DNA from: Escherichia phage TL-2011b
Length of the DNA stretch: 44,784 nucleotides
Sequence record: JQ011317
Direction: 5' to 3' (one strand)
Positions 3,002 to 35,715 of this stretch are shown piece after piece (positions within the stretch are counted from its first letter, which is position 1; every line of letters begins with the position of its first letter). Made by a program: the position numbers and the translations under genes. The notes below the pieces were generated by a model that did no database searches, was not told the origin of the DNA, and worked only from the letters and a program-made list of their open reading frames with translations.

Positions 3002-3883
3002 TTACATAGATGTTTCGTTTAATTCTTCCCGACGAACGCTGTAAACGTCGGTGGCTTTTGCCAGCAGTTCGTCATCATCTGAAAGTTTTTGTGCAATGTA
3101 TTTGTAAGCCTTATCCAGTTCGGAGACAGTGCTGTAATTCATCGCTGCGCTGGTAAAGGCCATCAGCATTTCTTCTGGCTCACGGCTATCCGCTTTACGC
3201 GTTTGCTCATCAGGCTTTTTCACTGATTTAGCGTTGATCAGACTGTTCATTCCCGCAGCCGTAGTCATTTGCGGAGTAATGTCTCGCTCAACGCGCGGTG
3301 CCGTTTCCTGTAATTCGTCAGGGGTGTAAACACCGAGAAGTACATCAGGAGCGTGCAGGCGAGCCCATCGTTTCGTGCAAAGATAGGCGAGCTGCTGGCG
3401 CGGATCCTGTTCCCACAATGGAGAGTTACGCACTCCGGCTTGCGCCATACTGATGGTAAGCTCACGTGGTTCTGCTTCTCCTTTAAGAACTGCTGACACA
3501 GTTACCGTCAGATTCGGTGATTTATCTGTTTTGCCGTTAACATTCGACCAGTCACCGCTCCAGCGATAATTCAGGCGTGTCGCCAGCAGGCTGGAAGAGG
3601 ATACGACCGCGTTTACCAACTGTGCTTCGTAGCCTAACGTTCCGTTTACCACATGCGTTTTCTGCGCCACGGCGAACGGGTTCATTCCCCACTGTGCCGC
3701 CTGCATGGTCACCGCCAGGCAATCGGCAGGTTTGCCTTCAAGATGTTTCGGTACAGTCGCTTTGCTTTGTGACATCAACTCCGCGAAACGCACCAGTTGA
3801 TTCATGCCCTCGGGGCTGAAGATTGCCGCAGCAGTGCCTACAGTTGCGCCTGGTTGTGATGTGATTGCGATATCATTGCTCAT
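3002..3883 (-). CDS. recT: RecT-family single-strand annealing protein
   Basis: 293-aa ORF recognised as RecT/Red-beta-like; ATGA-coupled to the upstream exonuclease gene. Confidence 0.8.
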   Translation of the reverse strand: MSNDIAITSQPGATVGTAAAIFSPEGMNQLVRFAELMSQSKATVPKHLEGKPADCLAVTMQAAQWGMNPFAVAQKTHVVNGTLGYEAQLVNAVVSSSSLLATRLNYRWSGDWSNVNGKTDKSPNLTVTVSAVLKGEAEPRELTISMAQAGVRNSPLWEQDPRQQLAYLCTKRWARLHAPDVLLGVYTPDELQETAPRVERDITPQMTTAAGMNSLINAKSVKKPDEQTRKADSREPEEMLMAFTSAAMNYSTVSELDKAYKYIAQKLSDDDELLAKATDVYSVRREELNETSM

Positions 3884-4701
3884 ACATACATATCCTGTTT
3901 ACGTGCCCAGTCAGGACGTTTAATAATTTCCACTCCGCCCCATTCATCGTTGATGCGGCATTCGTGATAGGTATTCAGATCCCGGCGGAACAGAGCGTGC
4001 CCGGCATCGACATCCGGCACATCCAGCTCGAACACGCGTACCGGATACCGACCACAATCAATGCTTTCGCTCACGGCAAGAAAGAAAAAACCATGCGGCT
4101 GACCAGTAACCCTCATTGCGCCTTCGCGGTACATTGCGTCCTGCACGTGGTAGCGGAATTCCTCGATGTGACGTGCAAAACGCTCCATATCTGCAACCTT
4201 TTTCACGTCGACGATCACGTTGTGCTCGTTCAGCCATTTGTCTGGACGAATTCGGCACAACTCACCAGTCTCTTCATCGTTCCAGTACATTGACGCTTCG
4301 CAGTAACCAGGTGCTTCCAGCATCCAGCGTGCCGCCGGGTGAGCCATTGCGCTATCACGCATCAGCTCCAGTTTCCGCCACTGCTCGGCATCAAGTACCG
4401 TAATCCCCATATCCGCCACATCACGAAGAAATGCCTCTTCGTCAGCTTTACCTTGTTTCGTCCGACGATCGAATTTCGGTGAAACAATGAAGCGTTTGTC
4501 GAACTCTCCAGGCTCCAGAAGCAGACAGTGCAATGCGGTTCCCATATCCAGTGCAGACTTTTTCTCTTCGTCTTCTGGTGCTGCCTGAACCCATTTAAGA
4601 AGCGCCGGATTCTTGGCAACCATGTCAAGTTGCGACTTACTCACGCCGTCACCGGCGTGGTAGTCTTCGTTGCTGATGTCGAAATAAATTCCCGGTTTCA
4701 T
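3880..4701 (-). CDS. PD-(D/E)xK exonuclease, RecE/YqaJ-like partner of RecT
   Basis: 273-aa ORF starting MKPGIYFDISNEDYHAGDG with IVDVKKV motif; immediately upstream of recT. Confidence 0.65.
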   Translation of the reverse strand: MKPGIYFDISNEDYHAGDGVSKSQLDMVAKNPALLKWVQAAPEDEEKKSALDMGTALHCLLLEPGEFDKRFIVSPKFDRRTKQGKADEEAFLRDVADMGITVLDAEQWRKLELMRDSAMAHPAARWMLEAPGYCEASMYWNDEETGELCRIRPDKWLNEHNVIVDVKKVADMERFARHIEEFRYHVQDAMYREGAMRVTGQPHGFFFLAVSESIDCGRYPVRVFELDVPDVDAGHALFRRDLNTYHECRINDEWGGVEIIKRPDWARKQDMYV

Positions 4702-5305: not shown

Positions 5306-5890
5306 TTATTGTTTGCTTTTTTCGTTCTGGCTGATGACAAATTCAATGTAACTTTCGATCTTTGCCTTCTCTGTTTCAGGTAACAATGCGTAGCGCGAGC
5401 GGTCATAGTTGATAGTTGCAGGGTCATGCGGGTGAATCAGTAGTTCATATCCGTGACGCCCGAATGCTGATGCAACATTCTCCAGGGTGGAAATGGAAAC
5501 GCTGACCTCATTGTTTAACAGGCGGCTAATTGTCACCTGGGCGACGCCGGATGCGCGGTGAAGTTTTCCCTGTGTTGAAAGGTCGCGGCTTTCGCTCATC
5601 CAGCGTTCCAGGTTGTGAGCCGCCAGCTGACCAATGTCGCTTGGTCCGACAGGCTGAACCCCCTCCTGAGAAAGCGAGCGATCGATATCAAGCCAGTTAC
5701 GGGGTTTATTGGCGGCAGCTTCAATTTTTCGCGCAACCTGGTCGCCGATAACCTTCTTGCCAAGAGCCCAGCGGTTTACCAGATTTGCCTGAGTTCCAAG
5801 TTTTTCTGCCATCCGCGTCTGAACACCATTGAATTCACGGTCGATCAAGTCGTTGAGATTTTGCCTGCGGACGTCCTGGATACTTTTCAT
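5306..5890 (-). CDS. Prophage repressor (CI-like), two HTH domains, no S24 peptidase domain
   Basis: 194 aa; divergent from the cro-like gene across a 154-bp operator region; two HTH-like segments; no Ser/Lys autocleavage module; no Shine-Dalgarno before ATG. Confidence 0.6.
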   Translation of the reverse strand: MKSIQDVRRQNLNDLIDREFNGVQTRMAEKLGTQANLVNRWALGKKVIGDQVARKIEAAANKPRNWLDIDRSLSQEGVQPVGPSDIGQLAAHNLERWMSESRDLSTQGKLHRASGVAQVTISRLLNNEVSVSISTLENVASAFGRHGYELLIHPHDPATINYDRSRYALLPETEKAKIESYIEFVISQNEKSKQ

Positions 5891-6423: not shown

Positions 6424-6636
6424 TTGAAGATAGTAACCAGAATGGAGGCCGCAAAAGCCGGGTTAAATCGCTATTTCACAGGAAAGCGGTGCCGTCACGG
6501 CCATCTCTCTGAAAGGTATGTTCTGAACGGAACATGTGTTGAATGTGCAATGAATAGCGCCAACCGCCATCGTAATGAATTTGCTTGTGCACTAAAGAGT
6601 GCAAGAGGGGAAACCTATGGCAAGCAGCTGGATTAA
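6424..6636 (+). CDS. Small Cys/His-rich protein (about 64-70 aa)
   Basis: TTG start at 6424 with AAGGGG Shine-Dalgarno, or ATG at 6442; motif CRHGH...CVEC; overlaps the O-like gene start. Confidence 0.4.
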   Translation: MKIVTRMEAAKAGLNRYFTGKRCRHGHLSERYVLNGTCVECAMNSANRHRNEFACALKSARGETYGKQLD

Positions 6637-7441
6637 GGTTGAAGTTATCACTCCTGATAAACCTGAAATTTTTCAGATAGCAGAAATTCTGGGTATTGAT
6701 CCAGATGCTGTTCTTGGAAAGCTGGTTCGTATATGGGCATGGGCTGACCAGCAAACAATAGACGGTAACGCTGGCAGCGTTACAAAAGGAGTACTTGATA
6801 GACTCGCTTTTATTACAGGATTTGCTGACGCCCTCATTAGCGTCGGATGGCTTGCTTATCATGACGGCAAACTAATTCTTCCAAACTTTGAGCGACACAA
6901 TGGAGAATCATCGAAAAAACGTGCACTTACGAATAGAAGAGTGGCAGAGCATCGAAAACGAGTAACGCAAAAAGTAACGCCAACAGCGTTACAAAAGGAG
7001 TTACCAGAGGAAGAGGAAGATATATATAAAACCCCACACATAGCACACGCGCGCGAGAGTGATCCGACCAGTGAAGCGAACGGTACGCCGTTGCAGGTGG
7101 CAGAACCTGCATTTCTGGATGGCCTGAGTGAACCTATTGGGAAATTTCCGATGACCGATGGCTGGCATCCATCGCCGGATTTTCGACGGCGTGCTGCGCT
7201 GTGGGGAACGGCCCTGCCGGAACCGGAATTTACACCTGCTGAACTTGCTGCATTCCGGGATTACTGGATGGCTGAGGGCAAAGTGTTCACGCAGGTTCAG
7301 TGGGAACAAAAATTCGCCAGGCACGTAAATCATATCAGGGGAAAATCAAAAAACGTCGGGAAAAGCGATGAGCTTGACTGGAATAACACTGACTGGATAG
7401 AAGGGGTGTGGGATGAAATCAACTCCAGAACTTCTCAATGA
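6617..7441 (+). CDS. Replication initiator / replisome organiser (lambda O-like)
   Basis: ATG at 6617 with GAGGGG Shine-Dalgarno; contains iteron-like repeats and an AT-rich tract; followed by a P-like gene. Confidence 0.6.
   Translation: MASSWIKVEVITPDKPEIFQIAEILGIDPDAVLGKLVRIWAWADQQTIDGNAGSVTKGVLDRLAFITGFADALISVGWLAYHDGKLILPNFERHNGESSKKRALTNRRVAEHRKRVTQKVTPTALQKELPEEEEDIYKTPHIAHARESDPTSEANGTPLQVAEPAFLDGLSEPIGKFPMTDGWHPSPDFRRRAALWGTALPEPEFTPAELAAFRDYWMAEGKVFTQVQWEQKFARHVNHIRGKSKNVGKSDELDWNNTDWIEGVWDEINSRTSQ
6765..7031. repeat. Putative origin of replication: iterons plus AT-rich tract inside the O-like gene
   Basis: GTAACGC / GCGTTAC inverted pair at 6765-6783; AGTAACGC at 6961-6968 and 6973-6980; AGCGTTACAAAAGGAG at 6776-6791 and 6985-7000; GATATATATAAAA at 7019-7031. 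Confidence 0.45.
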
Positions 7442-8189
7442 GTACGATCGCTTACGTGAGCATGGTGTTGCTGTGCATGAAGAGCGGCGTGACAGCAATG
7501 GCAAAAAGGAGCAGGTCGCTAGAATTTTCAATGAACTATTTGTCCAGTTACAGGCTGCATTTCCTGCAAGCGTTTCGACCATAAGGGAGCAGAACAAACT
7601 TAATGAATTCCGTAAGCAATGGATGCTTGCGTTTCTGGAGAATGGGATCACTACAATGGAACAGGTTAACGCTGGTATGCGCCACGCCCGCGCCAGTGAA
7701 TCTCCGTTCTGGCCGTCGCCTGGGCAATTTATCAAGTGGTGCAAAGACAGCAAGATGGTTCTTGGTGTCACCATTGACGATGTGATGGCGGAGTTTCACC
7801 GGTACAGCAAGGAAAAAAGTTTATATCCTGGCGGTCCCGAAAGATTCCCGTGGCGGCATCCGGTTATGTACTGGGTTGTATGTGATACCCGCCGCGCAAT
7901 GTATCAGCGCCAGCTTAGCGAGATTGAGGTTGAGAAACACGCGCGCAGGTTGCTCGATGATTGGGCGAAAAAGGTGGCTTCCGGACAGCAGATACCCGAT
8001 CCGGTGATCAGCATACAGGCAAAGCCAGAACCCATGAGTACACCTCCGGACACAGGGAGAGACGTTTACCATCCACCAGGGCGAAGTTTCGGGTGCATGC
8101 CTAACGCCGCCACCCTGGGGGGAATAACACCGGCGCAGTGGCTGATGGAGGAATACAGGCGGGGAAAGGCGGCAGGATTTATCAAGTAA
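7413..8189 (+). CDS. Replication protein P-like (DnaB helicase loader)
   Basis: Block NGITTMEQVNAGMR and overall pattern match lambda P as recalled from memory. Confidence 0.8.
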   Translation: MKSTPELLNEYDRLREHGVAVHEERRDSNGKKEQVARIFNELFVQLQAAFPASVSTIREQNKLNEFRKQWMLAFLENGITTMEQVNAGMRHARASESPFWPSPGQFIKWCKDSKMVLGVTIDDVMAEFHRYSKEKSLYPGGPERFPWRHPVMYWVVCDTRRAMYQRQLSEIEVEKHARRLLDDWAKKVASGQQIPDPVISIQAKPEPMSTPPDTGRDVYHPPGRSFGCMPNAATLGGITPAQWLMEEYRRGKAAGFIK

Positions 8190-8226
8190 TACCAGCGCGA
8201 TAGCGCATTTTTTTACGCCTATATAA

Positions 8227-8303
8227 TTACCTGATGGGTAACAAAATATTCTTATATCTATTGATTTTGTGCCTTATGTGGTTTTTAATTACCTTAGAGG
8301 TAA
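8227..8303 (+). promoter_or_regulatory. Promoter with two TTACC-N5-GGTAA sites upstream of the DUF1064-like gene
   Basis: Sites at 8227-8241 and 8289-8303; -35 TTGATT (8261-8266), -10 TTTAAT (8284-8289); second site overlaps the start site and RBS. Confidence 0.45.
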
Positions 8304-8306
8304 ATC

Positions 8307-8652
8307 ATGAGAAAACAGATACAGGCTCTTGGTCGACTCAAAACAGGCCAGATGAACAAAACAGAATCATGCGTATTGCCAGTACCTTGAGCAGCGTAAA
8401 CGTGCAGGGGAAGTCGCCTGGTATCGGTTCGAGGGTATCAAGCTGCGGCTGGCTGACAACACGTTCTATACGCCCGATTTTGCTGTGATGCTCGCCACCG
8501 GCGAGATGGAACTGCACGAAGTGAAAGGTTTCTGGACCGACGACGCCAGGGTGAAAACCAAAGTCGCCGCAGATCAGTATCCGTTCCGAATCATCGGGGT
8601 AACGGTTAAGCCAAAGAAAGCAGGTGGTGGCTGGAACATCGAAGAGTTCTGA
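8307..8652 (+). pseudogene. DUF1064-family phage protein, frameshifted
   Basis: ATG at 8307 reads MRKQIQALGRLKTGQMNKTES then stops at 8388; the family-like remainder (QYLEQRKRAGEVAWYRFEGIKLRLADNTFYTPDF...) continues in the +1 frame to 8652; one extra nucleotide near 8370-8373. Confidence 0.55.
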
Positions 8653-8713
8653 ATCGACGATCTTTTTAGTTATCAATGTAATCAATAAGTTATGTGGATA
8701 AGCGAGGGTAAAG

Positions 8714-9220
8714 ATGGACGGTAATATCAAAGGGTTAGTTTCCGCCGGGCATGAGATGGCTTCGGAACTGAAAGCTGAATGTGGTGCCGTTGATATGCGC
8801 AGCGTGGCAAAGCTGATCAGCGATTTGGCAACGCAACTGGAAGTGCAACTGGCGCGTGCTAATGCGCTGGCCGAAGACCAGCAGAAAGCGATTGAGTCAA
8901 TTAAGCAGGCTGATGCGGCTGTTAAGTTGGCACACGAGAAGTTTTCAGCTCTGGCGGCGGAGAATGCGGGGCTGAATAAATTTATCGCACAGAGTTGCTA
9001 CGTGTTTGATGGCGAGCAGGATGAAATATCTGATGCGTATATCTGCGCAACAGATGGAGGGATGCCGCAAACACCAGCCACCGATGCTTTCCTGGCTGAA
9101 GTCCGGGCGCAGGGTGTGGAGATGTTCTCAGAAAAATTCGGAGGTGGCACTCCGCTATCCAATATGGTCAAAGAGGTTGCTGCTGATTTTGCGGCGAAGC
9201 TTCGCAAAGGAGGTGAGTAG
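8714..9220 (+). CDS. Hypothetical protein, Ead/Ea22-like
   Basis: 168-aa coiled-coil-rich ORF with GAGGG Shine-Dalgarno; weak recollection of Ea22-type proteins. Confidence 0.4.
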   Translation: MDGNIKGLVSAGHEMASELKAECGAVDMRSVAKLISDLATQLEVQLARANALAEDQQKAIESIKQADAAVKLAHEKFSALAAENAGLNKFIAQSCYVFDGEQDEISDAYICATDGGMPQTPATDAFLAEVRAQGVEMFSEKFGGGTPLSNMVKEVAADFAAKLRKGGE

Positions 9221-9392
9221 TGCGTGTGGCATGTATCGGCTTGTTACCGTACCCGACTCGTTTTTGGGCTTCTGCGCTAATTGCAAAGCCACATGTCCTG
9301 ATGGCTGACAACATCATCCCGGCACCAAAGCGCCGCCATACCGGTATTGCAGCGGCACGACGAGCAGCAAAGAAACGCAGGAGAACAAAACG

Positions 9393-9569
9393 ATGAAAAA
9401 CCGTAAAGCAAAACGACTTTTTTTACAGCGACCTGTGCGTGTGGTGGAGCTGGTTATCAGCAACCATAAGATAGCGGTACTCCATCCATTTGGTCAGGTG
9501 GCTTTTGCCGCAAAGCGTAAGCCTAGCGCGTCACAGAACAGGCGGAAGAAAGGGTACGCAGTAAGATGA
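9393..9569 (+). CDS. Small basic protein (58 aa), paralog 1
   Basis: Starts MKNRKAK; ATGA overlap with the next gene. Confidence 0.4.
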   Translation: MKNRKAKRLFLQRPVRVVELVISNHKIAVLHPFGQVAFAAKRKPSASQNRRKKGYAVR

Positions 9570-30506: not shown

Positions 30507-30939
30507 CTATTCAGGTATTTCAATTCCAAAACCATCTGCATCCCATGAGTTTTCACAGATGATGTAACCTAGTTCATTGAGCTTATTAAATGTTTTTTCA
30601 AAGATGATCTGGTAATCATTATCTGCAAGTGATTCCAGTTCAAGGTCATTAAGGTTTATATAAAAACTTGTATGTCCAAGTGTTATTTTCTTATTAATTT
30701 CATTAAAGGTTCTTTTGAAAATAATATTTGATATTTCATGTCGTGCATTGTTTGCAATAATTTTTGCTTCATAAGCAGAAATTACGTCATCTTCATGAAT
30801 ATCTTTCAGAAAGCTGGTGTCAAGACGTTGTACTATTTCAGCGTTCATTGATCGCTTATTGGCTTTTGCAGAAATTTCTATTTTTTCTTTTACTTCAACG
30901 GGAAGTCTGATCCCTTAGTTGTGGATCTTCTCTGCTCAT
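30507..30939 (-). pseudogene. Mnt-like ribbon-helix-helix repressor gene with apparent +1 frameshift
   Basis: ATG at 30939 encodes MSREDPQL then stops; the downstream frame continues GIRLPVEVKEKIEISAKANKRSMNAEIVQRL, matching P22 Mnt (MARDDPHFNFRMPMEVREKLKFRAEANGRSMNSELLQIV); one extra base near 30915. Confidence 0.55.
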
Positions 30940-31299: not shown

Positions 31300-32244
31300 A
31301 TGACGAGTATAGCAACAGCGGTATCTACTATCAACGTGCCATTCCACGGCGCAGAGCTTTATGTTGTCAATCATAACGGCGAACCATACACCCCAATGAA
31401 ACCAGTCGTTGAAGGTATGGGGCTGGACTGGAAAACGCAGTTCCGCAAGTTGCAACAACGCTTTAAGAGCTGCATGGTCGAAATGACCATTCAGCTCCCC
31501 GGTGATACTCAGCGTCGTCTGGTTATCTGTCTTGCTTTACGCAAACTTGCAGGTTGGCTGCAAACCATCAGCCCTAACAAAGTCCGCCCTGAAATCCGCG
31601 ACAAGGTAATCCAGTATCAGGAAGAGTGTGACGATGTGCTCTACGAGTACTGGACTAAAGGCCATGTGGTTAACCCACGCAAAGCTAAAAAGGCGTTGCC
31701 GGGTAAAATAACAACTGAACAGCAGGAAGCCATTAAACAACTCGTCATGAGTCGCGGTCAGTCTCTGCCAAAAGAAAAACAGGCTAAGGCGATGATCACC
31801 ATGTGGTCGTCACTGAAATCTCATTTTGGCTGTTCGTACAAAGAAATTGGTGAAGATCAATTTGCCGAAGCGTTGTCTCTTGTTGCTCGGGTTCCGCTTG
31901 AAGGGGAGTATCTCCCTGCTGGATCTGCATCAGAGAATGATGAAGTGGCAGTCAAGATGTTAGATGCGCTTCGTGAGGCAATTAAAACACAGACAAAATG
32001 TTATGGTTATCCATTGAAGCCCGGCTACCGCAGTCTGATTCATTCTCCGTCTGGTGTTCTCGGTCTGACGGAGAACTCACTGCTGATGAATCTGCTGAAC
32101 CAGTTACAGGAAGACGGGCACGATGTATCGGGCGCGGCGGCGGAGCTGACCACCATGTTCTGTTACATCGTTGGTGTGAGCAAATGCCTGCGTGATATCC
32201 AGACGCACGCGGAGTACATCAACGACAAGGCAGGGTTCTTCTGA
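31300..32244 (+). CDS. Anti-repressor (Ant) family protein 1
   Basis: 314 aa; N-terminal antirepressor-type domain (INVPFHGAELYVVNHNGEPY); C-terminal 77 aa identical to the second Ant protein. Confidence 0.65.
   Translation: MTSIATAVSTINVPFHGAELYVVNHNGEPYTPMKPVVEGMGLDWKTQFRKLQQRFKSCMVEMTIQLPGDTQRRLVICLALRKLAGWLQTISPNKVRPEIRDKVIQYQEECDDVLYEYWTKGHVVNPRKAKKALPGKITTEQQEAIKQLVMSRGQSLPKEKQAKAMITMWSSLKSHFGCSYKEIGEDQFAEALSLVARVPLEGEYLPAGSASENDEVAVKMLDALREAIKTQTKCYGYPLKPGYRSLIHSPSGVLGLTENSLLMNLLNQLQEDGHDVSGAAAELTTMFCYIVGVSKCLRDIQTHAEYINDKAGFF
32008..32244. repeat. Inverted repeat arm A (3' end of ant1)
   Basis: Reverse complement is about 97% identical to 33420-33656 (3 mismatches in the first 84 bp compared by hand). 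Confidence 0.7.
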
Positions 32245-32281
32245 CGGGCGGCGGCACAGGGATGTGCAAAACGAAACTATC

Positions 32282-32293
32282 GTGACATGTCAC
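32282..32293. repeat. Perfect 12-bp palindrome GTGACATGTCAC (copy 2)
   Basis: Identical to 11500-11511; 14-bp extended versions are reverse complements of each other. Confidence 0.6.
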
Positions 32294-32294
32294 A

Positions 32295-32320
32295 GGCCGC
32301 TTTCGCGGCCTTGTTCTTTT
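32295..32320 (+). terminator. Rho-independent terminator after ant1
   Basis: Stem GGCCGC / GCGGCC, loop TTTC, then TTGTTCTTTT. Confidence 0.65.
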
Positions 32321-32480
32321 AACGAATGCCACCGCCGCCCGGGCGGGAATCCGCAGAACGCCCACCGCAGCGGGAGCCGTCAGCGGCAGTATCGCTGTCG
32401 TGCTGACAACGACCGGCAAAGGCCTGAGTTGAAGCTACCAGAGACAACAAAACGAACAGTGCAGCAAATGCTTTTTTCAT
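32319..32480 (-). CDS. Small secreted peptide (53-aa precursor), Gly/Cys-rich
   Basis: Textbook Sec signal peptide MKKAFAALFVLLSLVASTQAFA; predicted mature 31-aa peptide with two Cys. Confidence 0.45.
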   Translation of the reverse strand: MKKAFAALFVLLSLVASTQAFAGRCQHDSDTAADGSRCGGRSADSRPGGGGIR

Positions 32481-32550
32481 TGTGAAATTTCCATCTATAA
32501 GCCACCTCAATGTGGCGTCAATGAGTGTAGCACTGACTTTTGTTTCGTCC

Positions 32551-32574
32551 ACAAAAAAGCCCGCGCTGCGGGCT
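32551..32574 (-). terminator. Terminator of the minus-strand two-gene operon
   Basis: Stem AGCCCGC / GCGGGCT with plus-strand A-run (U-run on the minus transcript); overlaps the stop codon. Confidence 0.55.
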
Positions 32575-33118
32575 ATTCCTTCCATTTATCAGAAAAAAGA
32601 TCTTCTTCTAAAGGCATTGGTTCTGTTTTTGTTTTCTCAAAGAATTGATAACTGATAGTGATTGCTTCCTCTTTAAACTCTTCTTGCTCAGTTATGTTGT
32701 GAGCATCTGCGTCAACAAAAAACATAACCAGCGCATCACGATTGTGATTTACCGAATAAACTAAAAAGCAATCACTTGTTGGTATGCATTTTACTTGTAC
32801 AGACGCTATATTTTTCCATGCATCCCAAGATGATTTTTTACCAGTGTGTTTTTTATCACTATCTTCTGGAATATAGTCTTGGTTATCGACATGAGTATGC
32901 CTGACATTTAGTTTAAGCATTTCTGTCGGACGAGCAAATGCAGCATCTTTACCAAGAGATGGATGGTATCCCGTTTTCCAATACTGGGTAAAGGCATCAG
33001 ATACTTTCTTCAGCTCAAGATCAGATGCACAAAGGGCCGAGAAATTTTGCGTATGCAACACTCGACCCTTATATCTGACAACTTGATTTTTATCATTCTG
33101 CGACGCAGACGAACTCAT
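32573..33118 (-). CDS. Putative toxin, YafO-like (181 aa)
   Basis: ATG at 33118; blocks LGKDAAF, LNVRHTHVDN, CFLVYSVNH resemble YafO toxins as recalled; overlaps a small upstream ORF by 26 nt. Confidence 0.4.
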   Translation of the reverse strand: MSSSASQNDKNQVVRYKGRVLHTQNFSALCASDLELKKVSDAFTQYWKTGYHPSLGKDAAFARPTEMLKLNVRHTHVDNQDYIPEDSDKKHTGKKSSWDAWKNIASVQVKCIPTSDCFLVYSVNHNRDALVMFFVDADAHNITEQEEFKEEAITISYQFFEKTKTEPMPLEEDLFSDKWKE

Positions 33119-33272
33119 AATTTTCCTTATTGTTACGAGAATCAAAGAAAGCGCGGGATACGCGACTTGCGTGATCTTTTGTCATAGTAACTTTTACGTA
33201 CTCTACGCTTCCATTGAAAGAACGTCTTGCGGCAGCTTGCGCTCTACGCATCTGCAATTTTTCGTTTCGCAT
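33093..33272 (-). CDS. Small basic protein (59 aa), putative antitoxin/regulator
   Basis: ATG at 33272 with GAGGT Shine-Dalgarno 6 nt upstream; below the ORF-track cutoff; TTACC-N5-GGTAA site 61 bp upstream. Confidence 0.4.
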   Translation of the reverse strand: MRNEKLQMRRAQAAARRSFNGSVEYVKVTMTKDHASRVSRAFFDSRNNKENYEFVCVAE

Positions 33273-33332
33273 GACATTACCTCATATCTCATAAGTTCAT
33301 TACACGGATTAATAAAAATGAAACCAATCCGT

Positions 33333-33347
33333 TTACCCTTGAGGTAA
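33333..33347. promoter_or_regulatory. TTACC-N5-GGTAA site in the promoter of the toxin-antitoxin-like operon
   Basis: TTACCCTTGAGGTAA. Confidence 0.45.
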
Positions 33348-33419
33348 TAGTACGCTATTCACCCACAGTCTGCAATCTGTACAGAATTATTTAAAGGCAC
33401 ATCCCTGTGCCGCCGCCCG

Positions 33420-33656
33420 TCAGAAGAACCCTGCTTTGTCGTTGATGTACTCCGCGTGCGTCTGGATATCACGCAGGCATTTGCTCACACCGACGATGTA
33501 GCAGAACATGGTGGTCAGCTCCGCCGCCGCGCCCGATACGTCGTGCCCGTCTTCCTGTAACTGGTTCAGCAGATTCATCAGCAGTGAGTTCTCCGTCAGG
33601 CCGAGAACACCAGACGGCGAGTGAATCAGGCTGCGGTAGCCTGGCTTCAGCGGGGC
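33420..33656. repeat. Inverted repeat arm B (3' end of ant2)
   Basis: See arm A at 32008-32244. Confidence 0.7.
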
Positions 33657-34115
33657 GCTGTAGGTTTTGTTCTCTATCTTCATCGCCTGCATCACTGCTG
33701 ACGCCGTGGCGTTGGCTACCTGGTCGGCAACCATCTTTATGCGTTCTTCCTGCGGGAGCGAGTTTTTAATGTAACTTCCGGTGCGGCGGATCTGAGGAAG
33801 AACCTCACCTGTAACCCATTTACGAAAGCGGTAGGGGATAGTGCCTGGTGTCACCGCATCGCGGCAGCGGAGGATCAGTGTGTAGAGGCCTGACTCGGAG
33901 ATGATGATCGATTCTTGCTCACCGCCAGGGGTGTCGGTTGAAGCGACGCCCTTCTCATCATCATCAAGTTTTCGAACAGCATCTCGATGGTTTGCTATGC
34001 CTATAGCCCGACAAACATCTGAAGCGATAAACCATGGCTCACCATTAATGACGATTACCCGTATATCGGCTTGGGATTCGAAAGAAAAAATGGACGTGCT
34101 TTTTGTAGCTGTCAT
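33420..34115 (-). CDS. Anti-repressor (Ant/Bro-N) family protein 2
   Basis: 231 aa; Bro-N-like N-terminus (VIVINGEPWFIASDVCRAIGI); C-terminal 77 aa identical to ant1. Confidence 0.7.
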   Translation of the reverse strand: MTATKSTSIFSFESQADIRVIVINGEPWFIASDVCRAIGIANHRDAVRKLDDDEKGVASTDTPGGEQESIIISESGLYTLILRCRDAVTPGTIPYRFRKWVTGEVLPQIRRTGSYIKNSLPQEERIKMVADQVANATASAVMQAMKIENKTYSAPLKPGYRSLIHSPSGVLGLTENSLLMNLLNQLQEDGHDVSGAAAELTTMFCYIVGVSKCLRDIQTHAEYINDKAGFF

Positions 34116-34384
34116 AGTGGTTACCTTTTAGTCTGGTTAATCACCACTACCGACGCCAATCGGTTGGTGGTGAACTGTGCAGGGTTGGCGTAACCGGCTA
34201 AAAGGACCCGGCGCACCTTTCGGTGCCCCCACACAGCCCACCATAATACGAATGTGGCCGTGCTATACGCATAAAAAAACCGCTTGCGCGGTGAATGCGC
34301 CTTTTAGTAATCCGGGACGCCAATCCCGGCACTGGATTTTTCCAGTGCCCGATTACTATGGCACAAGAGGAGTGCGATGTAAAT

Positions 34385-34492
34385 TTACCGCAAAGGTAAT
34401 GATAAGCGCGGGGATATATAAAAATCAACCGTATTTGGTTGGTGGCGTTTAACGCTTGATCACCTGAAAGCAAGATATTACCTTTAAGGTAA
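34385..34492. promoter_or_regulatory. Two TTACC-N5-GGTAA sites in the 400-bp noncoding region upstream of ant2 and the zinc-ribbon membrane protein gene
   Basis: TTACCGCAAAGGTAA (34385-34399) and TTACCTTTAAGGTAA (34478-34492). Confidence 0.45.
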
Positions 34493-34512
34493 TGTTATTG
34501 TGAGGAAAAGCA

Positions 34513-35241
34513 ATGGAAGTTTTCTGGATAGTTGTTGGTGTGGTTGCGGTGATTATTTACGTTATCAACCAGAACAAGACTAAGATCTCTGATCGTACGG
34601 TCGTTAATCATAACAAAACGATAAAGACCGAAGATGGGGAGATAACGATTAATCGTACACAGGTGATAGAACACACCTCTACTCAGTTTCAAAAAACTGG
34701 AGGTAATGCGCCTAATATTTCCGCACCTCCTGCTTATGATAGTGCGGTAATCCAGACATATTATAAACAGCAGGAGTTAGCAAAAGAGAGGCAACTGATT
34801 CAGCCAAAGCCATTTACAGCAGAGCTTCCACCTGGAGTGTCAACGCGTCCGGCATATCATGGAAGATTCCCTGGTGATGACGTATCGTCTCAGTCACCTA
34901 AAAAAGCACCTCAGGCAGTATCAGAGCCAGCAAGAATACCTTCTGTATCGCCGTCAAAAGAAGAATCAGCTAACGAAGTTTCAAGTGCCCGCAAGCAGTG
35001 TTTGCGATGCAGAATAAACCTTCCATATGAAAAATTCAGGAAATCGTCAAAAAATCCAGATGGATTGACTAAGTGGTGTGCAAGGTGTCTCGATGGCCCA
35101 AAGAATACACGTCATATGAAGTGGTGCCCAATTTGTAATGTCCGCAGAAAACGAACCAGCTTTTACCCTAATAATCAAAATGCGGATGGCTTAATGGCAT
35201 GGTGCAAAACGTGCTGGGACGAGCACAAAGCGAAACGATAG
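34513..35241 (+). CDS. Membrane-anchored protein with two C-terminal Cys4 zinc-ribbon repeats
   Basis: N-terminal TM helix, Pro/Ser-rich linker, two repeats of C-x2-C ... DGL-x3-WC-x2-C. Confidence 0.5.
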   Translation: MEVFWIVVGVVAVIIYVINQNKTKISDRTVVNHNKTIKTEDGEITINRTQVIEHTSTQFQKTGGNAPNISAPPAYDSAVIQTYYKQQELAKERQLIQPKPFTAELPPGVSTRPAYHGRFPGDDVSSQSPKKAPQAVSEPARIPSVSPSKEESANEVSSARKQCLRCRINLPYEKFRKSSKNPDGLTKWCARCLDGPKNTRHMKWCPICNVRRKRTSFYPNNQNADGLMAWCKTCWDEHKAKR

Positions 35242-35264
35242 GCCGCTCTTGCGGCCTTTTCTTT
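35241..35264. terminator. Terminator shared by convergent genes
   Basis: Stem GGCCGC / GCGGCC, loop TCTT, then TTTTCTTT. Confidence 0.55.
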
Positions 35265-35520
35265 ATGTGGTTTGTTTTCGTAGTTGTTCGGCACAATAGT
35301 CGAGATGTGTTTGCAGATCCTGCATAGACATCTGTGAGCTGGTGACGTAGTTAATCAGTGCAGTCAGTTCGGCAAGTGGGCCATCGACATTAAATCCATC
35401 CTTATCGAGATCCCGGAGTAATTTCATCAAGTGCGATCCCTCCACCAGTGATCTGACGCCTCCCGGCGTGTGAATCCTTTCGGTAAATCCGTCTTCCAGT
35501 GGATAGTGATACTGCTGCAT
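35263..35520 (-). CDS. Stand-alone Ant C-terminal-domain protein (85 aa); candidate LexA-controlled antirepressor (Tum-like)
   Basis: ATG at 35520 with GGAGAAG Shine-Dalgarno; diverged homologue of the C-terminal domain shared by both Ant proteins; LexA box 20 bp upstream. Confidence 0.55.
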   Translation of the reverse strand: MQQYHYPLEDGFTERIHTPGGVRSLVEGSHLMKLLRDLDKDGFNVDGPLAELTALINYVTSSQMSMQDLQTHLDYCAEQLRKQTT

Positions 35521-35538: not shown

Positions 35539-35560
35539 TAACTGTATAAATATACAGTAG
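35539..35560. promoter_or_regulatory. LexA (SOS) box
   Basis: AACTGTATAAATATACAGTA: CTGT-N8-ACAG with AT-rich spacer, close to the LexA consensus. Confidence 0.75.
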
Positions 35561-35596
35561 CAAATAATTTGTTTGCTATCCAGCACGTTTTGCGAA

Positions 35597-35611
35597 TCAC
35601 CTGAAAGGTAA
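35597..35611. promoter_or_regulatory. TCACC-N5-GGTAA site upstream of the tailspike gene
   Basis: TCACCTGAAAGGTAA, one mismatch to the recurring palindrome. Confidence 0.35.
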
Positions 35612-35715
35612 TATCTGTTCGTATTTATGGGTTATCTATCCATATGTGGTTTTTCAGGTAATAGAATAACCGGATATGCGGCGCAACGGGTGCTGCGACT
35701 ATCTGGAGATTTAAC

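Follow-up and report, generated by a model that had tools for sequence, protein, structure and literature searches.

A duplicated Ant domain forms an inverted repeat around an accessory-gene slot in an epsilon15-like Escherichia coli prophage and probably allows rare inversion of its cassette

We analyzed a stretch of 44,784 bp from Escherichia phage TL-2011b (sequence record JQ011317), referred to here as the window, whose sequence marks it as an E. coli prophage of the phiV10/epsilon15 type (Uetakevirus). Two convergent genes, ant1 (31300-32244, plus strand) and ant2 (33420-34115, minus strand), are situated between the large injection-protein genes and the gene for the tailspike, and their 3' ends form an inverted repeat around a cassette of 1129 bp (32268-33396). 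All genes of this cassette are located on the minus strand, downstream of ant2. The left arm of the repeat (32015-32267, plus strand) comprises the last 227 coding nucleotides of ant1, the stop codon and 23 nucleotides downstream of it, and the right arm (33397-33649, minus strand) is the same module at the 3' end of ant2. Alignment and base-by-base comparison of the arms gave an ungapped core of 253 bp with nine mismatches (96.4% identity), within which the longest identical tracts measure 59, 56, 38 and 38 bp. The initial annotation had described a 97% identical repeat at 32008-32244 and 33420-33656. The repeat itself is real, but its limits and identity had to be corrected: over those coordinates 14 mismatches are found in 237 bp (94%), since their first 7 bp are not part of the repeat and since they leave out the 23 bp by which it extends beyond the two stop codons (to 32267 and 33397). 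A repeat finder run on the window reported a single inverted pair (31976-32267 and 33397-33688, 292 nucleotides, 91% identity), which is the sole inverted repeat of at least 35 nucleotides in the 44.8-kb window.

The arms code for a regulatory domain known from related phages. The 77 C-terminal residues of the ant1 and ant2 proteins are identical and all nine differences between the arms are therefore synonymous. Residues 233-309 of ant1 (E=7.5e-14) and residues 150-226 of ant2 (E=1e-13) both match residues 3-79 of the 86 residues of PDB 5D50_E, the Ant protein of the SPC32H-type Rep-Ant pair. The SPC32H Ant protein is reported to bind the phage repressor Rep (Kim & Ryu 2013, J Virol 87:11775, as cited in PMC7380047). 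Judging from these matches, each arm encodes a complete Rep-binding-type Ant domain that is fused to a different N-terminal domain in the two proteins. In ant1 the epsilon15-type Ant domain follows a P22_AR_N domain (Pfam PF10547, E=2.9e-45); a Pfam scan of ant1 found only P22_AR_N and no P22_AR_C domain. The N-terminal and middle part of ant1 resembles the Ant proteins of CUS-3 and of Shiga toxin (Stx) phages, and the match at the DNA level ends at 31909 (query position 910). ant1 is visibly chimeric and a putative antirepressor. The gene is preceded by a small co-oriented open reading frame (ORF) and by a divergent Arc-family (Mnt-like) gene. In ant2 the C-terminal epsilon15-type Ant domain is joined to a Bro-N domain (Pfam PF02498). 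The counterpart of ant2 is ORF4 of phage ZX5, in which the locus is found at 99% DNA identity, and overexpression of ZX5 ORF4 was reported to reduce lysogeny (PMC9782041). A third copy of the domain constitutes a stand-alone Ant protein of 85 residues (35263-35520, minus strand), which is 88% identical to the SPC32H Ant and matches PDB 5D50_E with E=1.3e-47. This copy had been described as diverged, and its amino-acid identity to the C-termini of ant1 and ant2 is indeed 42% (E=4e-21).

A secreted-peptide gene, toxin-antitoxin-like genes and a terminator had been proposed as the content of the cassette, and all of them were recovered between the arms. The gene for a secreted (signal) peptide of 53 residues (WP_000708858.1; 32319-32480, minus strand) represents the conserved distal end of most cassettes. 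It is accompanied by a toxin-like gene of 181 codons (32573-33118, minus strand) that is assigned to the YafO family with 26.1 bits against a cut-off of 25 (Pfam PF13957) and whose homologues in related prophages are labelled YafO family by PGAP. The start of this gene is overlapped by an ORF of 59 codons (33093-33272, minus strand), a candidate antitoxin that is called as a gene in the related locus L090 and that gave no family match. A PADLOC scan of nine cargo proteins and of the 53-residue peptide produced no match. At the other end of the cassette, a leader of 66 bp (33331-33396, minus strand) adjoins the right arm. This leader is conserved across different cargo types, with positions 186-251 of a probe termed CASR matching at 94% in loci L086 and L087. 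Intrinsic terminators are located directly downstream of ant1 (32294-32311, plus strand) and after the toxin-like gene (32558-32574, minus strand).

A slot with exchangeable content became apparent when related prophages were compared. IMG/VR was scanned with the 77-residue domain, which yielded 79 loci that were then probed with segments of the window. IMG/VR loci and complete genomes together provided 31 loci with two convergent arms. The left gene at these loci is ant1 (P22_AR_N), a second Bro-N gene, an ORF6N gene or an AntA-type gene, and the right gene is mostly ant2-like. At least 12 unrelated cargo types occupy the slot between them, including two kinds of YafO-like toxin, DUF4760, DUF2335 and several proteins without a family match. 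Most cassettes carry the 66-bp leader beside the right arm and the 53-residue peptide gene with a terminator beside the left arm. A search of a plasmid collection added only two records, which resemble excised phages and both lack ant1.

One cargo gene has already been connected with a phenotype. Orf10 of phage phiv142-3 is expressed in lysogens and is reported to be up-regulated in serum and to contribute to serum resistance (PMC7724020). The published orf10 knock-out primers encode GPFLTDDEIKIIQSFLEDVA, a peptide contained in the cargo protein of the L054 type, and phiv142-3 orf10 is a cargo gene of the inter-arm slot. The annotated Orf10 of 52 residues (L106, 2943-3101) appears to be a truncated call of a cargo protein of 193 residues as found in L054.

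According to the initial annotation, the segment between the arms can be inverted and comparison with related prophages should reveal this. Indeed, the same cassettes were found in both orientations, and in related genomes the homology switches between direct and inverted inside the arm. In the complete genome of strain MS 196-1 the DUF2335 and YafO cassettes lie on the plus strand, and the same cassette proteins (WP_001609225.1, WP_000163643.1, WP_000708858.1) are encoded on the minus strand in the complete genomes of 2015C-4498 and APEC E18055. BLAST aligned positions 7234-8736 of MS 196-1 to positions 8210-6706 of E18055 in inverted orientation (1505 bp, 98.3%), and positions 8481-9483 to 8188-9191 in direct orientation (97.5%), the latter match covering the arm and the Bro-N flank. 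The inverted and the direct match meet in the arm, so the change of orientation occurs inside it. Comparison of MS 196-1 with 2015C-4498 gave an inverted match of 1441 bp at 97.9%. A further flipped configuration, which we call the EC100 type, is present in 35 complete genomes, where ant2, then the cargo, then the peptide gene are found on the plus strand, facing an AntA-type gene. Relative to locus L091 the arm-cargo-arm block of the EC100 type is inverted over 1621 bp at 98.0% identity and its right flank is direct. These data support inversion of the cassette on an evolutionary scale.

A flipped cassette is also found in a draft contig (L024/L094, GCA_000752855.1). Its sequence agrees with that of the window at 100% between the injection gene and the end of ant1 as well as over the whole cassette, the cassette being in the opposite orientation. 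Its arm equals the left arm of the window except for the last single-nucleotide polymorphism (32229), which has the allele of the right arm, and this places the crossover in the identical tract of 56 bp at 32173-32228. The contig would represent an exact inversion isomer of the window prophage but may be an assembly artefact.

Searches for the flipped arrangement as a whole gave a different picture from the native one. An artificially inverted ant1-cassette-ant2 query matched 0 of 5,426 complete E. coli genomes at a coverage of at least 80%, and the native query found 10 complete E. coli genomes. Several candidates for flipped loci were discarded. The top matches to the inverted query are explained by strains with two Bro-N genes, and matches in which the CASL segment stands next to an ant2 arm are mostly native left-hand Bro-N genes, with only MS 196-1 being truly flipped. 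Loci L015 and L025 had also been considered as an inter-arm inversion. What is flipped between these two draft genomes is the complete ant-cassette-ant unit, which measures 3.27 kb and is 94% identical. The breakpoints fall in repeats (MID) located upstream of each ant gene, and these regions constitute a second, outer pair of inverted repeats.

Two further arrangements were noted among the relatives. MS 196-1 harbors two tandem cassettes within one arm pair (L087, 6102-8480), both flipped with respect to the usual orientation and ordered as DUF2335 with peptide gene, 66-bp leader, and YafO with peptide gene. Where a prophage has two Bro-N genes, the left one is accompanied by an inverted, truncated pseudogene fragment of the P22_AR_N (ant1-like) kind (L004 7516-7782, L005 8829-9095, L085 8471-8674, L086 8410-8847, L026 6728-7124). 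These fragments are remnants of other rearrangements, which an inversion between the arms fails to account for.

We wondered why the two arms have remained nearly identical. The initial annotation had attributed this to recent gene conversion, i.e. ant1 and ant2 would have been homogenized within this genome. We compared 227 coding nucleotides of 108 arms taken from the sampled loci, among which the IMG/VR loci had been picked for a 100% protein match of one arm, with no such selection on the partner arm. The 108 arms represent 91 DNA haplotypes but only five protein variants, and third codon positions account for 43 of the 51 variable sites. About three quarters of random substitutions are non-synonymous, so nine synonymous differences out of nine are very unlikely to arise unless purifying selection acts on both copies. 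Both copies of the arm are thus under strong purifying selection. The Hudson-Kaplan minimum amounts to at least 15 recombination events within these 227 nucleotides, and none of the compared arms showed left-specific or right-specific alleles. In 26 related prophages with both arms, left and right arms of the same genome differ on average at 8.6 of 227 nucleotides, compared to 8.9 for left and right arms of different genomes, 8.0 between left arms and 8.7 between right arms. Pairs within a genome are not significantly closer than pairs between genomes (permutation p=0.22), and the arms of the window, with their nine differences, lie at the population median. Left and right arms therefore share one heavily recombined pool of alleles, which means that the two copies have exchanged sequence over evolutionary time.

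These values do not bear out recent conversion between ant1 and ant2 as the source of the near identity, and we consider that explanation improbable. A freshly homogenized pair would not be expected at the median distance or be as distant as arms of different genomes, and the exclusively synonymous differences point to divergence under selection rather than to fresh homogenization. Conversion would fit better elsewhere: the arms are unusually similar in L015 and in L051 (three differences each), and L031 has rare alleles that are common to both its arms, so that occasional conversion between arms probably takes place. For the window, we attribute the near identity to purifying selection on the protein domain combined with a shared, recombining allele pool, as all differences are synonymous.

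Could the repeat serve as a programmed or high-frequency switch? Inversion would then move the toxin/peptide cassette between the ant2 unit and an arc-ant1 unit of the P22 immI type. The layout would suit such a role, since the cassette genes are co-oriented with ant2 now and would be co-oriented with ant1 after inversion, with the plus-strand terminator moving along, and one assembly of the same prophage type is flipped with its crossover inside the arm. However, no invertase was found among the ORFs at 29.5-37.5 kb of the window, among ten ORFs scanned in the early region or among the genes that PGAP annotates in relatives, and the arms consist of 253 bp of coding sequence rather than of short recombination sites. 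Moreover, orientation is uniform within lineages: it is the same in 35 of 35 complete genomes of the EC100 type, native in about 12 of the 13 assemblies with an identical ant1 protein and YafO cargo, and uniform within every cargo cluster but one. As a fast neutral switch would lead to roughly equal states, this uniformity counts against it. We judge a programmed or frequent switch to be very unlikely, and the same is true for the heterogeneity among lysogens that its flipping would create.

Homologous recombination is a plausible route. In the ten early-region ORFs that were scanned, recombinases are limited to a tyrosine integrase and RecT, the latter encoded together with a PDDEXK exonuclease (3002-4701, minus strand; Pfam PF03837 and PF12684). 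Work by Shen and Huang from 1986 reportedly showed that RecA-dependent recombination in E. coli needs at least about 25-30 bp of homology to pair efficiently. The identical tracts of the arms are longer than this, which makes recombination by RecA or by phage single-strand annealing plausible. The initial annotation had proposed that inversion depends on RecA, but RecT and the exonuclease would be a possible RecA-independent route. An active flip-flop in lysogens, in which RecT or RecA yields a minority of cells reading the cassette from the Mnt/Arc-controlled arc-ant1 promoter instead of from the ant2 side, strikes us as unlikely. If it took place, the L024/L094 contig would represent a real sub-population, and cargo expression would be coupled to different induction signals.

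We consider the following account probable: the inverted repeat formed by the duplicated domain occasionally inverts or exchanges the cassette by general recombination, as a rare event and not as a programmed switch. The repeat would owe its existence to a requirement of both proteins for one and the same Rep-binding domain. Incidentally, the arms would serve as substrates for general homologous recombination, either via the host RecA or via the phage RecT/exonuclease, and recombination between them would occasionally invert or exchange the cassette, with rare events becoming fixed in lineages. After inversion the cassette would be located downstream of ant1 instead of ant2, and the plus-strand terminator would be relocated as well. 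Since the arms encode identical peptides, both Ant proteins would be left unchanged. Any effect of inversion would hinge on the use of the 66-bp leader to transcribe the cassette.

Several points weigh against this account. The orientation evidence comes from assembled genomes throughout. The only clean isomer, L024/L094, belongs to a short-read draft and breaks off 34 bp into the second arm. The assembler may have taken a wrong path across the repeat, and the ant2-side contig of GCA_000752855.1 was not found among the matches listed. No pair of complete genomes differs by the inter-arm inversion alone. One flank has also been replaced each time, and since this flank is then a different gene, only one breakpoint is resolved per pair. 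Such multi-step histories may have involved exchange between different phages and not a simple flip of a single molecule. The selection of the IMG/VR loci inflates the apparent conservation of the selected arm, though not that of the partner arm. Finally, the expected target of the Ant domains of ant1 and ant2 is deduced by homology: the window encodes a homologue of the prophage repressor Rep (5306-5890, minus strand) that matches SPC32H Rep over its full length (PDB 5D50_A, E=6.6e-42).

In the extreme, the repeat would merely consist of two copies of a conserved domain with no role in recombination, and the differences in orientation would stem from unrelated illegitimate events or from assembly artefacts. 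The lack of a clean isomer pair with two breakpoints among complete genomes is compatible with this idea, as is the fact that draft assemblies can mis-thread inverted repeats. Nevertheless, we find it hard to believe, because the transition between inverted and direct homology falls inside the 253-bp arm in three independent comparisons involving complete genomes, because the flipped EC100 configuration recurs in complete genomes (35 in total), and because recombination within the arm is as intense as described above. Occasional inversion or exchange by general recombination accounts for these observations and remains our preferred reading.

The closest known relative of the regulatory part is the Rep-Ant system of SPC32H and epsilon15 (PDB 5D50). 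Like these phages, the window has a full-length Rep, and an 85-residue Ant with 88% identity and a perfect LexA box upstream of it; the stand-alone Ant gene occupies the same position before the tailspike gene, and the arms encode the same Ant fold. The window differs in that it has two more Ant domains, which are fused to P22_AR_N and Bro-N and are encoded by convergent genes around a cargo slot. The SPC32H and epsilon15 records each gave only one match to the Ant protein. The environment of ant1 is reminiscent of immI (mnt-arc-ant) of P22, with which it shares the P22_AR_N domain, the small co-oriented ORF, the divergent Mnt-like gene before ant1 and the location between injection-protein and tailspike genes. 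Unlike in P22, ant1 carries an epsilon15-type Ant domain in place of P22_AR_C, and the phage is epsilon15-like and not P22-like.

With respect to the rearrangement, the locus is best compared to inversions between rrn operons, insertion sequences (IS) or paired prophages. These likewise involve long repeats (here 253 bp at about 96%) with breakpoints within the repeats and no dedicated recombinase, and the events are rare and become fixed in lineages. In contrast to this class, the repeat of the window is very short and lies inside one prophage, and it flips only about 1.1 kb of accessory genes with the flanking proteins remaining unchanged. Similar to the invertible segments of the Hin/Gin/Cin/Pin systems and to shufflons, a small phage segment is bounded by inverted repeats and both orientations are known. 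However, no invertase gene was found among the ORFs scanned, short crossover sites are lacking, orientation is stable within lineages, and inversion does not alter the flanking coding sequences. As neither an invertase among the ORFs scanned nor heterogeneity within a clone or lineage among the assemblies compared was found, we do not regard the segment as being of the Hin/Gin type. Conserved flanks around highly variable cargo are also a feature of moron hot spots and of mosaic boundary sequences (the bsq features in CUS-3). Here, one coding module supplies both flanks in opposite orientations, which allows cargo to be exchanged either way round. Literature searches for inversion or for a cargo slot in Uetakevirus prophages retrieved no description of this arrangement.

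E. coli prophages of the epsilon15/phiV10 type can thus carry up to three proteins with a Rep-binding-type Ant domain, and these appear to be controlled in different ways. LexA would act on the stand-alone Ant and a P22-like Mnt/Arc module on ant1, and ant2 may have yet another control. Such a combination suggests a lysis-lysogeny switch with several inputs. At the same time the duplicated Ant domain doubles as the homology arms of a compact slot for accessory genes. On the practical side, short-read assembly can easily go wrong at the repeat, which is also a natural landing pad for the exchange of cargo in either orientation. The recombination mechanism itself is conventional, and it is the repeat created by domain duplication around a cargo slot that represents a new and tidy example.

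The putative control elements of the three ant genes differ. A perfect match to the LexA-box consensus, CTGTATAAATATACAG (35542-35557, plus strand), is located upstream of the stand-alone Ant gene, as expected for SOS control of the SPC32H type. No good LexA box was found upstream of ant1 or ant2, where the sole candidate is a site with one mismatch at 34221. The Arc-family gene before ant1 (30507-30938, minus strand) contains an extra C at 30905-30920 (CCC instead of CC) in comparison with L090 and L003, L090 being otherwise identical. The extra C shifts the frame of the first ~10 codons of the Mnt-like gene, and the intact ORF starts at 30848 and lacks a Pfam Arc match. By sequence comparison, the extra C is either a homopolymer sequencing error or a loss of the repressor meant to silence arc-ant1.

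Additional elements were observed between ant2 and the stand-alone Ant gene. Operator-like palindromes of the form ATTACC-N5-GGTAAT are found at 34380-34400, 34473-34497 and 35596-35616, in front of both ant2 and the stand-alone Ant gene, and may be bound by a common regulator. The minus strand before the start of ant2 also has two promoter-like sites (34428-34399 and 34383-34355) and, behind them, an intrinsic terminator (34292-34279). This layout of 34279-34428 is suggestive of attenuation control or of a small RNA or short leader. At the equivalent place ZX5 annotates an 'ash family protein'. The interval further encodes a cysteine-rich protein of 242 residues (34513-35241, plus strand) with a weak Stc1-like match, which is present only in some relatives, and in strains N21 and NR363 its place is taken by another toxin pair of the YafO family. 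The interval looks like a second slot for accessory genes. Apart from the arms, the only long repeat of the window is a direct repeat of 80 nucleotides with 85% identity in the early region (2788-2867 and 6591-6670), the copies of which are 3.8 kb apart.

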